64,000 nt of DNA. Source: Minisyncoccota bacterium (lineage in GTDB: Bacteria; Patescibacteriota; Minisyncoccia; Phycocordibacterales; UBA5272). The notes under the pieces were generated by a model. That model searched no databases. It was not told the DNA's origin and saw only the letters and a program-made list of their open reading frames with translations. Made by a program: the position numbers and the translations under genes. Where the stretch lies: contig JBAZJW010000002.1 of NCBI GenBank assembly GCA_041651055.1, forward strand, positions 90,980 through 154,979, given 5' to 3'. Of this stretch, positions 42,930 through 45,077 are shown in pieces; position 1 is the first letter of the stretch; every line of letters begins with the position of its first letter.

Positions 42930-45077
42930 TCACAGGGCGATGGAAGCCACGATTTCCTTGCGCCAGGAGTCGATCTTGGTCTTGGTGTCCACCAGCTTCT
43001 TGGTCTTGGCGGCCTCGCGTCCGGACACTTCCGCGTCGATGGCCTTGGAAATGTCCTTGAGGATGCCGTTGGCCTGCATGGCGTCGGTGTCCTTCTTGGC
43101 GCTCTTCTGCCACACACCGTACGCTTCCTTGGCGGCGTCCATGAACTGGCTGGCTTTGAGATTCAGTGGGTTGGTGTATGCGGACAGCACCGTCTCGATG
43201 GTGCGCCGCTGATCGGGCTTGTCCCACAGCATGTTGGACAGCACCTCGATCTCGTCGTCGGTCACTTCCTGGTGTCCACGGATCAGAGCATATGCACGCA
43301 GGGTATTGACGATGGACTTCCAGCGCCGGTCACTGACCTGAATGCCGTGCTTCATGCGGAGTTCCATGCAGATTGACCGGATGGACTGCAGCACACCGGC
43401 CGGGACCTGCACCTTTTCCATCATGGAGCGCAACTCATTGATGTCTTCCATGGTCAGCTTGGTGGAGATCTCCTTCTTACCGACCGTTCCTGTGGGGTTC
43501 ACCAAATCCAGGAACAGGTTGTCATCCTGGATGTAATCGACCCAAAACCTGGTCAAGAAACGGTCGTACAAGGCACCCAACTCCTCGCCCTGGGGAAGCT
43601 CATTGCTGGCCCCGATGCATGAGAGGAGAGGAATTTTGACAGGCTGTCCGTTGTTGAAGAAGATGCGCTCATTGATGGCACTGAGCAGGCTGTTGAGCAA
43701 TGCCGAATTGGACTTGAAACAGTTGTGTGTAACAGCCATTGCTCTACCAGCAAGGAACAAGTTATCCTCAGAATCCACAGAAACACATTTAGTAGATCTG
43801 GGCGCAACCTCCGTGATTGATGTAATGCGTAGATGTTTTCTTTGCACTAATTTCGGAATATTTTTGTGACTCCTGCACAAAAACATAGGCATGTCCGGGT
43901 CAGCCCTGAAATTCACTTTCCAACACTGCTTGTGTGCCCCCTTCTTTCCAATTCGGTTGTCCTTGGTGGGCCTCTTTGAACACTTTGCGCCCAGCGTGCG
44001 TAGTATTTCGACAAAACCATCAATAATGTGTTCATTGGTGTTGCTAAATGTGCATGTTCCACATTCCATGATGTGTCCTTCGGTGTCCATCAATCCTTGT
44101 ATCAGTCTCATTCTCTGGTGTATAGATCCCCTTTTGTATGCTAATGGAATGTATTTTCCGCTACCAAGGTATGTACTTCTGTTTTTCAATAGCCCCAAAT
44201 CCCCTATGTGCGTTCTGAATCCAGTTCCTGCCAATGAAATAACTTCTAATTTACTTGATTTCTTGTGGGCACCGGTAATCCTTGCATTTGGTGTTGTTTT
44301 TTGAATTTCGTGTGCAGTATGTGCAGCGATTTCCTTTCTTACATAAATTTCCATGTTCCATGAATTGCCGTTCCCTAGCCAGCACCCGAGTGTGTACGGA
44401 TCTGCTGGTAGCATGTTTTCTTGTAACTCAACCGGCTTTGGGAGCGGTATTTGCCATCTCTTCCCGGTAACGTGTTCATTGTACATCTCTTCTGCGGTTC
44501 TGACTTTGTGTGCAGTTTTGTGATTGCTCCTGCTCTTTCTGCACAGCCAACGATGACCAGCATCACATACCAATGACTCCCCATTTTCAAACACGAATTT
44601 GTAGCATTTTTTATTCTCGAACACCTTTGTGACACCAGTTACAATGGTTGGTTTTCCGCTTGCCGACAATAGGGTATCCCCTACTTTGATGTCTCTAATA
44701 GTCGTCCATCCGGTAGGTGTTGGTATTGGCGTGTCTAGATCCAAGGCTTCATCTAAAAATACGATGTGCGCCTCTGGTAACTTGCCAGAGGTGACGCGGC
44801 GGTACTCGTCCTGCTTCAGCCCCTTGAGGCTCACCGGGCCAAACACCTCCTCCGGTGTGCTGAACTTGGTGAGCAGCCACTCGAAGTATCCAGCCCCGTC
44901 GATGGCATTGCACAGGCAGCGCGCAGCGTAGCTCTTGGCGGTCCCGGGGGGACCCAACAACAGGATGTGCGTGCTGCTGATGAGGGCTGCGAGCATGGCC
45001 TCGATGATGTGCCCGCGCTCGGCCATAGCCTGGTTGAGTTCACTGATGAGAGATGAAACTTTGTCGAGAACTGGCAT
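42930..45077 (-). CDS. MoxR-family AAA+ ATPase interrupted by an intein
   Basis: Walker A LLLGPPGTAKS; Walker B HIVFLDE; sensor region resumes as CFKSNSALLNSLLSAINE after a 342-aa insertion. Confidence 0.8.
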   Translation of the reverse strand: MPVLDKVSSLISELNQAMAERGHIIEAMLAALISSTHILLLGPPGTAKSYAARCLCNAIDGAGYFEWLLTKFSTPEEVFGPVSLKGLKQDEYRRVTSGKLPEAHIVFLDEALDLDTPIPTPTGWTTIRDIKVGDTLLSASGKPTIVTGVTKVFENKKCYKFVFENGESLVCDAGHRWLCRKSRSNHKTAHKVRTAEEMYNEHVTGKRWQIPLPKPVELQENMLPADPYTLGCWLGNGNSWNMEIYVRKEIAAHTAHEIQKTTPNARITGAHKKSSKLEVISLAGTGFRTHIGDLGLLKNRSTYLGSGKYIPLAYKRGSIHQRMRLIQGLMDTEGHIMECGTCTFSNTNEHIIDGFVEILRTLGAKCSKRPTKDNRIGKKGAHKQCWKVNFRADPDMPMFLCRSHKNIPKLVQRKHLRITSITEVAPRSTKCVSVDSEDNLFLAGRAMAVTHNCFKSNSALLNSLLSAINERIFFNNGQPVKIPLLSCIGASNELPQGEELGALYDRFLTRFWVDYIQDDNLFLDLVNPTGTVGKKEISTKLTMEDINELRSMMEKVQVPAGVLQSIRSICMELRMKHGIQVSDRRWKSIVNTLRAYALIRGHQEVTDDEIEVLSNMLWDKPDQRRTIETVLSAYTNPLNLKASQFMDAAKEAYGVWQKSAKKDTDAMQANGILKDISKAIDAEVSGREAAKTKKLVDTKTKIDSWRKEIVASIAL
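43722..44747 (-). mobile_element. intein (Ala1, class 3-like) with LAGLIDADG homing endonuclease
   Basis: Block A ALDLDTPIPT; block B GHRW; LAGLIDADG motifs LGCWLGNGNSW and LIQGLMDTEGHI; block F Cys (STKCVSVD); C-terminus AVTHN followed by Cys+1. Confidence 0.65.

Follow-up and report, generated by a model that had tools for sequence, protein, structure and literature searches.

What is the 342-residue segment that interrupts a MoxR-type ATPase gene on contig JBAZJW010000002.1, and by which route might it leave its host protein? We addressed this question in a 64,000-nucleotide stretch of that contig (positions 90,980 to 154,979 of the forward strand, assembly GCA_041651055.1; hereafter the window). 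We conclude that the segment is very probably a mobile intein of class 3 that carries a LAGLIDADG domain and lies in a phage bpMoxR gene, between the Walker B glutamate, Glu110, and the next residue. An original prediction, made from the letters of the sequence, had placed an intein at 43722-44747, corresponding to residues 111-452, and these limits turned out to be exact to the base on the minus strand; the Trp177 (within GHRW), block F Cys431, Asn452 and Cys453 that it named were all present in the translation. The parts of the gene are given below, with residues numbered from the start of the intein unless the precursor is named, and with GC3 as the G+C content (GC) at third codon positions.

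42930..45077, minus strand: MoxR precursor open reading frame (ORF), 715 aa plus stop, 80.0 kDa
44748..45077, minus strand: N-extein, precursor residues 1-110, GC3 0.77
44931..44954, minus strand: Walker A motif GPPGTAKS, in the N-extein
44748..44762, minus strand: Walker B motif VFLDE, in the N-extein
43722..44747, minus strand: class 3 intein (very probable), 342 aa, precursor residues 111-452, GC 0.44, GC3 0.44
44448..44747, minus strand: HINT splicing domain, N-terminal part (intein residues ~1-100)
44745..44747, minus strand: Ala1 of the intein (Ala111 of the precursor)
44604..44606, minus strand: Cys48 (Cys158)
44553..44555, minus strand: block B His65 (His175)
44547..44549, minus strand: block B Trp67 (Trp177)
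43848..44447, minus strand: LAGLIDADG homing-endonuclease domain (intein residues ~101-300)
44364..44390, minus strand: LAGLIDADG motif 1, LGCWLGNGN (precursor 230-238, intein 120-128)
44370..44372, minus strand: Asn126 (N236), at the catalytic Asp position of motif 1
44076..44096, minus strand: LAGLIDADG motif 2, GLMDTEG, with Glu223 (precursor 328-334, intein 218-224)
43722..43847, minus strand: HINT domain, C-terminal part (intein residues 301-342)
43785..43787, minus strand: block F Cys321 (Cys431)
43728..43730, minus strand: block G Thr340, followed by His341
43722..43724, minus strand: Asn342 (Asn452), last residue of the intein
42930..43721, minus strand: C-extein, precursor residues 453-715 plus stop, GC3 0.81
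43719..43721, minus strand: +1 nucleophile Cys453, followed by FKSNSALLNSLL, the remaining AAA+ core and AAA_lid_8

The reading frame was open and continuous over both junctions, and no frameshift or stop was found in the ORF. The insert runs from ALDLDTPIPT to AVTHN, with HIVFLDE before it and CFKSNSALLN after it, and the DNA of the corresponding intein-less junction is CACATCGTATTTTTAGATGAA^TGTTTCAAGTCCAATTCGGCA. Splicing of the 80.0-kDa precursor is predicted to give a 41.6-kDa MoxR protein (373 aa) and a free intein of 38.4 kDa.

Class 3 inteins are defined by a non-nucleophilic residue 1 and a Trp-Cys-Thr (WCT) triplet, made up of Trp at position 12 of block B, Cys at position 4 of block F and Thr at position 5 of block G. 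The insert starts with alanine (Ala111), as do all 15 MoxR alleles described below, while its relatives start with Ala or Gly. It carries the triplet as W67 (two residues past His65), C321 and T340, all invariant in a 25-sequence alignment, and it ends in H341-N342 followed by Cys453, cysteine being a rare variant of the +1 nucleophile. His65, Trp67, Cys321 and Asn342 fall within one residue of their counterparts in the MP-Be prototype (His65, Trp67, Cys320 and Asn341). This comparison uses the published residue numbers of the prototype, because its alignment via Mycobacterium phage Bethlehem led to a different intein in gp51 and to no match at record positions 30-52 kb.

A phmmer search of the PDB sequences recovered two experimentally validated class 3 inteins, MchDnaB1 (6RIX, 6RIY) and MsmDnaB1 (6BS8), with E-values of 5e-23 to 1e-20. 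The match came in two pieces, residues 1-69 and 307-342 of the insert, which lie on either side of the endonuclease domain and align Ala1, Cys48, His65, Trp67, the block F Cys and the terminal T-H-N. In MsmDnaBi1 the C118A substitution is known to abolish splicing. The AlphaFold2 model of the insert, built from the 25-sequence alignment, had a HINT fold (mean predicted local distance difference test, pLDDT, 91.9; predicted template-modelling score, pTM, 0.90). In the Foldseek search of the PDB the top match was PI-SceI (E 1.8e-18, TM 0.78), followed by other intein endonucleases including PI-PfuI; the class 3 mini-inteins 6RIX, 6RIY and 6BS8 covered the splicing domain with a target-normalised TM of 0.82-0.88, and I-DmoI covered the endonuclease part. 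Finally, a tblastn search of the insert against 50,697 phage genomes matched 752 records, 733 of which had a single match over at least 80% of the insert. Those matches lie in terminase large subunits (TerL), DnaB helicases and Cas4/RecB exonucleases, the best being TerL of Mycobacterium phages Nebkiss and Gaia at 37% identity. The class 3 reading that the original prediction had drawn from Ala1, Trp (B), Cys (F) and Thr (G) is thus borne out by homology to validated class 3 inteins, by the fold and by a break in GC3 at the borders of the insert.

We then compared the host protein with and without the insert. The precursor matched the Pfam bpMoxR model (PF20030) in two separate stretches and covered only positions 1-75 of the 139 of AAA_5. 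The 373-aa product spliced in silico matched bpMoxR in a single stretch over 2-203 of 205 positions (191.6 bits, cut-off 27), covered AAA_5 completely (1-139 of 139) and also contained AAA_lid_8. Its residues 4-303 aligned contiguously to positions 8-312 of the 498-position NCBIfam RavA model (NF010054), at 228.5 bits against an equivalog cut-off of 681. Judged by these models, the host is a MoxR-class ATPase of the bpMoxR family and not RavA. The exteins therefore join in register and without a gap once the 342 residues are deleted, as had been predicted; of the RavA/CoxD-type assignment made at the same time, the MoxR class stands, and the score falls below the RavA equivalog cut-off. The host has a von Willebrand factor A (vWA) partner. 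The absence of a HINT fold and a MoxR protein that fails to be restored, two of the outcomes that the original prediction had named as speaking against it, were both examined and neither holds.

A search with the spliced sequence in 5.8 billion proteins gave more than 6,700 homologues, and the insert was absent from the best 120 of them (359-412 aa; query coverage 75-100%, most of them at least 95%). In a 13-sequence alignment the sole large gap comprised exactly 342 residues, between the invariant DE and [I/V/C]FK(A/S)NS. Most insert-free homologues had Ile or Val after DE and the window protein had Cys, which is expected if this position must supply the +1 nucleophile.

The same site is occupied in at least 15 metagenomic MoxR clusters: that of the window, 11 further clusters at 90% identity (705-745 aa) and three representatives added by an exhaustive HMMER scan of 1.84 billion proteins. 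All 15 full-length clusters share the architecture DE, AL...T[H/S]N, CFK across the two junctions, and none of them is annotated as an intein. The window protein (P0121) itself has a public entry under the name 'MAG: AAA family ATPase [Candidatus Paceibacterota bacterium]', with a source contig of 183,779 bp. The allele is rare nevertheless: it was found in none of the best 80 MoxR loci in IMG/VR, nor in the best 80 of the GTDB species genomes. A protein-database search with the intein alone returned 23 proteins and no MoxR alleles, and is uninformative on the size of the family. Three of the other intein-bearing loci, L001 (a 266-kb contig), L002 and L003, have phage-like contexts, with many small unknown ORFs, DNA polymerase III beta, RuvB, ligase and RecA. 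Pairs of MoxR and vWA genes, together with a DUF6744 gene, occur near the intein-bearing MoxR in these three contexts, the MoxR-vWA pairing itself being seen in L001 and L003. The two corresponding genes of the window are:

41516..42919, minus strand: partner gene with a vWA domain (467 aa), starting 11 nt past the MoxR stop, with matches to VWA_2 and VWA_CoxE
46981..47811, minus strand: DUF6744 gene, GC3 0.79, found directly upstream of the intein-bearing MoxR in L003 and near MoxR in L001 and L002

In the exhaustive scan, sister inteins were found after the Walker B DE of two further AAA+ families. Seven are hosted by RuvB (P0268, P0272, P0279, P0313, P0321, P0362 and P0394; DE, AL...THN, CH) and two by DnaX-like clamp-loader proteins (P0298 and P0175; IIDE, AL...THN, CHML). 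Both kinds of host were confirmed by Pfam, and these metagenomic proteins are likewise unannotated as inteins. A neighbour-joining tree built from 36 inteins recovered the Walker B-site clade in 98 of 100 bootstraps, with the MoxR-hosted inteins monophyletic in 97 of 100. Relatives beyond this clade sit after the P-loop GK or after D-[W/Y]-K, mostly with Thr or Ser at +1.

A different kind of element was observed at the same place in one viral contig. In L020 (IMGVR_UViG_3300017963_000355; 3309..4084, plus strand) a homologous MoxR gene is broken after ...VAFLDE by ~810 nt that match an Rfam model for group I introns along its entire length (40.6 bits, gathering score 50, E 1.3e-8). This insert contains an antisense ORF of 164 aa with an HNH-like signature (3499..3993, minus strand), and the MoxR frame resumes at CFKANSAILN, so that the residue after DE is again Cys. 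Two distinct self-splicing elements thus seem to have settled in the Walker B codons of phage MoxR genes.

Regarding mobility, the changes in GC3 along the gene coincide with both junctions of the insert. The closest intein-bearing relative (protein P0122, locus L003) has GC3 values of 0.74 and 0.75 in its exteins and 0.30 in its intein. Among the 15 intein-bearing MoxR proteins, mean pairwise identity was 48% for the inteins vs 34% for the exteins. The nearest extein relatives of the window protein (58% identity) have no intein, and the nearest intein-bearing allele shares only 50% extein identity with it. To judge from these sequences, the patchy distribution is consistent with a mobile element that spread horizontally or was lost repeatedly.

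The endonuclease domain has the two-helix LAGLIDADG fold, with Foldseek matches to PI-SceI, PI-PfuI and I-DmoI. Its two motifs, which the original prediction had put about 100 residues apart, are separated by 98 residues; the spacing is as predicted, but only motif 2 has an acidic residue at position 8 (Glu223), motif 1 having Asn126 there. This asparagine, in the form LGxWLGNGN, was present in every one of the 15 MoxR alleles and in 6 of the 7 sisters from RuvB. Asp stands there, as LGxWLGDG, in the sisters from DnaX and in every more distant relative. In single-chain I-CreI and I-MsoI, one equivalent D-to-N change abolishes double-strand cleavage, although the I-MsoI variant keeps some nicking. 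By analogy, the domain probably makes no ordinary double-strand cuts, and a role as a nickase or in binding only would be our guess. The endonuclease part has a mean identity of 48% among the 15 intein-bearing MoxR proteins, vs 45-51% for the splicing parts; from this the domain looks selectively maintained despite the Asn. Bootstrap support for a group of all the inteins with Asn was only 47%, and the tree built on HINT columns alone was unresolved; a switch of host after the Asp-to-Asn change is therefore tentative and we do not claim it.

Cys48 was also invariant in the 25-sequence alignment. MsmDnaBi1 cannot do without Cys48, which pairs with the block F Cys in a redox-sensitive disulfide; given this precedent, redox-conditional splicing of the MoxR intein is a reasonable idea. 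A bolder reading joins these observations: the Walker B clade (MoxR, RuvB, DnaX) would carry an Asn-fixed yet conserved LAGLIDADG domain that maybe moved between AAA+ hosts after the change and works as a natural single-site (nicking) or non-canonical homing enzyme, with the Cys48/Cys321 pair as a possible conditional switch gating a phage assembly chaperone. We put this forward as speculation and think it unlikely to hold.

The family to which the insert belongs suggests how it would leave the protein. The 80.0-kDa precursor would be translated with its AAA+ core split at the catalytic Glu, and presumably inactive. Cys431, at position 4 of block F and aided by His175 and Trp177 of block B, would attack the Glu110-Ala111 bond and form a branched thioester on the block F Cys, from which the N-extein would be handed over to the thiol of Cys453 at +1. 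Cyclisation of Asn452 would free the 38-kDa intein, and an S-to-N acyl shift would leave a normal peptide bond between Glu110 and Cys453 in a 373-aa MoxR product that would work with the adjacent vWA protein. We infer splicing itself and the class 3 route from the family, and take anatomy, homology, fold, restored extein, recurrence and base composition directly from the data above.

Several points weigh against such an active class 3 intein. The curated intein hidden Markov models (HMMs), with which the original prediction had proposed to check the insert, barely detect it (Hom_end 20.6 bits, cut-off 21.1; Hom_end_hint 13 bits), and the Pfam LAGLIDADG_3 match is also weak. These Pfam and NCBIfam models are uninformative at their curated thresholds, and it is the PDB sequence search, tblastn and the fold, including the modelled HINT domain and its Foldseek match to class 3 inteins, that identify the insert. 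Asn126, read with the I-CreI and I-MsoI precedent, makes present-day homing by the usual route doubtful. Moreover, class 3 inteins seldom have Cys+1: one case was known to the founding paper of 2009, in which Ser or Thr is said to favour transesterification. The combination of Ala1 and Cys+1 makes it chemically conceivable that Cys+1 attacks directly, in the manner of class 2.

On that route, Cys453 would attack the N-terminal junction directly, as in KlbA, and the block F Cys would not be the obligate first nucleophile of a functional intein. Ala1 with Cys+1 is indeed the residue pattern of class 2, Cys+1 recurs in each of the 15 MoxR alleles and in the sisters within RuvB and DnaX, and nearly all the class 3 inteins of 2009 had Ser or Thr at +1, the Cys+1 case being untested at that time. 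However, the WCT triplet, which class 2 inteins lack by definition in the founding paper, is invariant in this clade together with Cys48; the alignment to inteins with an essential block F Cys holds residue for residue, and the clade nests among relatives with Ser or Thr at +1, which leaves the direct attack improbable. The loss of a catalytic endonuclease residue (N126) and the weak scores of the curated HMMs would suit a decayed, non-splicing remnant or a domesticated insert, in which the 715-aa protein stays whole and MoxR either has no activity or functions with a large extra domain in place; there are pseudogenised class 3 inteins, such as Arth_1007. Such decay is at odds with the intact ORF and with the retention of A1, C48, H65, W67, C321, T340, N342 and C+1 in 15 alleles at 41-61% identity to that of the window, where the penultimate His is Ser in a single MoxR allele (P0260). 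The insert also separates strand from helix behind the catalytic Glu, a break that an AAA+ core would probably not withstand, and Cys stands at +1 in place of the Ile or Val of most insert-free homologues; we consider a remnant highly improbable.

The jump in GC3 at both borders, and the group I intron at the very site in a related viral contig, could finally be taken as signs of an assembly chimera or of another intervening element, such as an intron with an endonuclease ORF, that never enters the protein. This is almost certainly not the case: the frame is continuous across both junctions, at least 12 independent contigs, assembled in different projects, have the identical architecture, and HINT blocks at both ends of the insert align to solved inteins.

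As for the replicon, the original prediction had spoken of a phage MoxR. The window encodes Baseplate_J-like, DUF4815-domain, lectin-like and beta-helix (tail-fibre kind) proteins and many ORFs that match no family. Neither a capsid nor a terminase gene was identified within it, and there were no cellular housekeeping genes among the window genes tested. PHROGs and Pfam searches on ~30 neighbouring ORFs gave few matches, and two structural-looking ORFs had weak phage matches, or none, by tblastn. A megablast search of the gene and the surrounding 24 kb against the 50,697 phage records found no match, so the genome is without a close sequenced relative there. Relatives of the MoxR protein were present in at least 89 IMG/VR viral contigs, and its closest named phage homologues belong to large phages, e.g. 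Bacillus phage 0305phi8-36. On the basis of the Baseplate_J and DUF4815 matches, the gene organisation, the phage-like contexts of the homologues and their presence in IMG/VR, the source is likely a large phage binned into a Paceibacterota metagenome-assembled genome (MAG). The phage origin is thus likely from the window genes and the contexts of the homologues, but not proven, and the public record remains that of a Candidatus Paceibacterota MAG.

We also noted several features around the gene. A spacer of ~1.9 kb (45078..46980) with lower GC and several ORFs of 60-100 aa parts DUF6744 from MoxR, and contains the only tRNA of the window, tRNA-Lys(UUU) (46363..46435, minus strand); in L003 the two genes are directly adjacent, without a spacer. 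The genes for DUF6744, the MoxR exteins and vWA (41516..43721, 44748..45077 and 46981..47811, minus strand) have GC3 of 0.72-0.81, vs 0.26-0.47 in the other sampled genes and a window GC of 0.42. This three-gene module looks compositionally foreign to the genome, or under a different codon pressure, and locus L003 has a similar contrast. A second mobile element lies near the module: an ORF of 379 aa (49560..50699, plus strand) with the full TnpB / IS605 OrfB architecture (HTH_OrfB_IS605, OrfB_IS605 and Cas12f1-like TNB). An ORF of 783 aa (51018..53369, minus strand) had a weak match to an Eco57I-type restriction-modification methylase (23.4 bits, cut-off 25.3).

Among known inteins, MsmDnaBi1 (6BS8) and MchDnaB1 (6RIX/6RIY), at DnaB site b, share with the MoxR intein the class 3 residues, the HINT fold and an insertion in the nucleotide-binding site of a P-loop ATPase. 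They differ in being mini-inteins of 139-146 aa without an endonuclease, placed in the P-loop after GK and followed by Ser at +1, whereas the MoxR intein has 342 aa and a LAGLIDADG domain, lies after the Walker B DE and is followed by Cys. The class 3 LAGLIDADG inteins of phage TerL, DnaB and Cas4/RecB proteins (Nebkiss, Gaia, MP-Be) have 29-37% identity over 95-100% of the insert and the same size and domain order, and they are phage-borne as well. They sit after the P-loop GK or D-[W/Y]-K, mostly with Thr or Ser at +1 and with LGxWLGDG; the MoxR clade is distinguished by DE, Cys+1 and LGxWLGNGN. PI-SceI, the VMA1 intein, is the best structural match to the whole insert, its HINT domain being split in the same way by a two-motif LAGLIDADG domain, but sequence identity is only 15-17% and the MoxR intein has Asn in motif 1. 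PI-SceI is a class 1 (Cys1) intein with acidic residues in both motifs (D218 and D326). The inteins of cyanobacterial DnaX (PolIII gamma) and of mycobacteriophage TerL1-e (class 3) also lie at or just after an ATPase Walker B, in different hosts. The cyanobacterial DnaX intein is of the standard Cys1 (class 1) type. Nearest to the MoxR intein are those of metagenomic RuvB and DnaX-like proteins, which are of class 3, unannotated and placed at the junction DE, C-H.

The original prediction had held that few class 3 inteins are known; this does not stand, since a 2025 survey reported 287 in actinophages alone and 752 phage records matched our insert. That survey found them in only four extein types, none of them MoxR, and our search of the literature available to us found no work linking inteins with MoxR. 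The claim of a new insertion site is upheld for the MoxR host and the site within it, both undescribed, and has to be narrowed in that Walker B was already a known intein site (cyanobacterial DnaX, mycobacteriophage TerL1-e) and that at least 15 MoxR clusters share the allele. With class 3 LAGLIDADG inteins common in phage ATPases, the novelty is therefore limited to the host, the site and two minor variations: the MoxR intein belongs to a familiar kind of element, seen here in a host and at a site that are genuine and had not been described, and is not new biology.

The general understanding of inteins is unchanged by it. The generic name of the public record and the intein HMM scores below their cut-offs indicate that similar inteins are probably under-counted in metagenomes. 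As a compact class 3 intein with Ala1, Cys+1 and a known DE, C junction, it has potential use in protein engineering, and its conserved Asn endonuclease variant is a natural test of a half-disabled LAGLIDADG site. The MoxR intein adds the MoxR chaperone ATPase, and the Walker B site after DE, to the hosts of class 3 inteins, and with its sisters it points to a single intein lineage that targets the equivalent structural position in three AAA+ families: MoxR, RuvB and DnaX.

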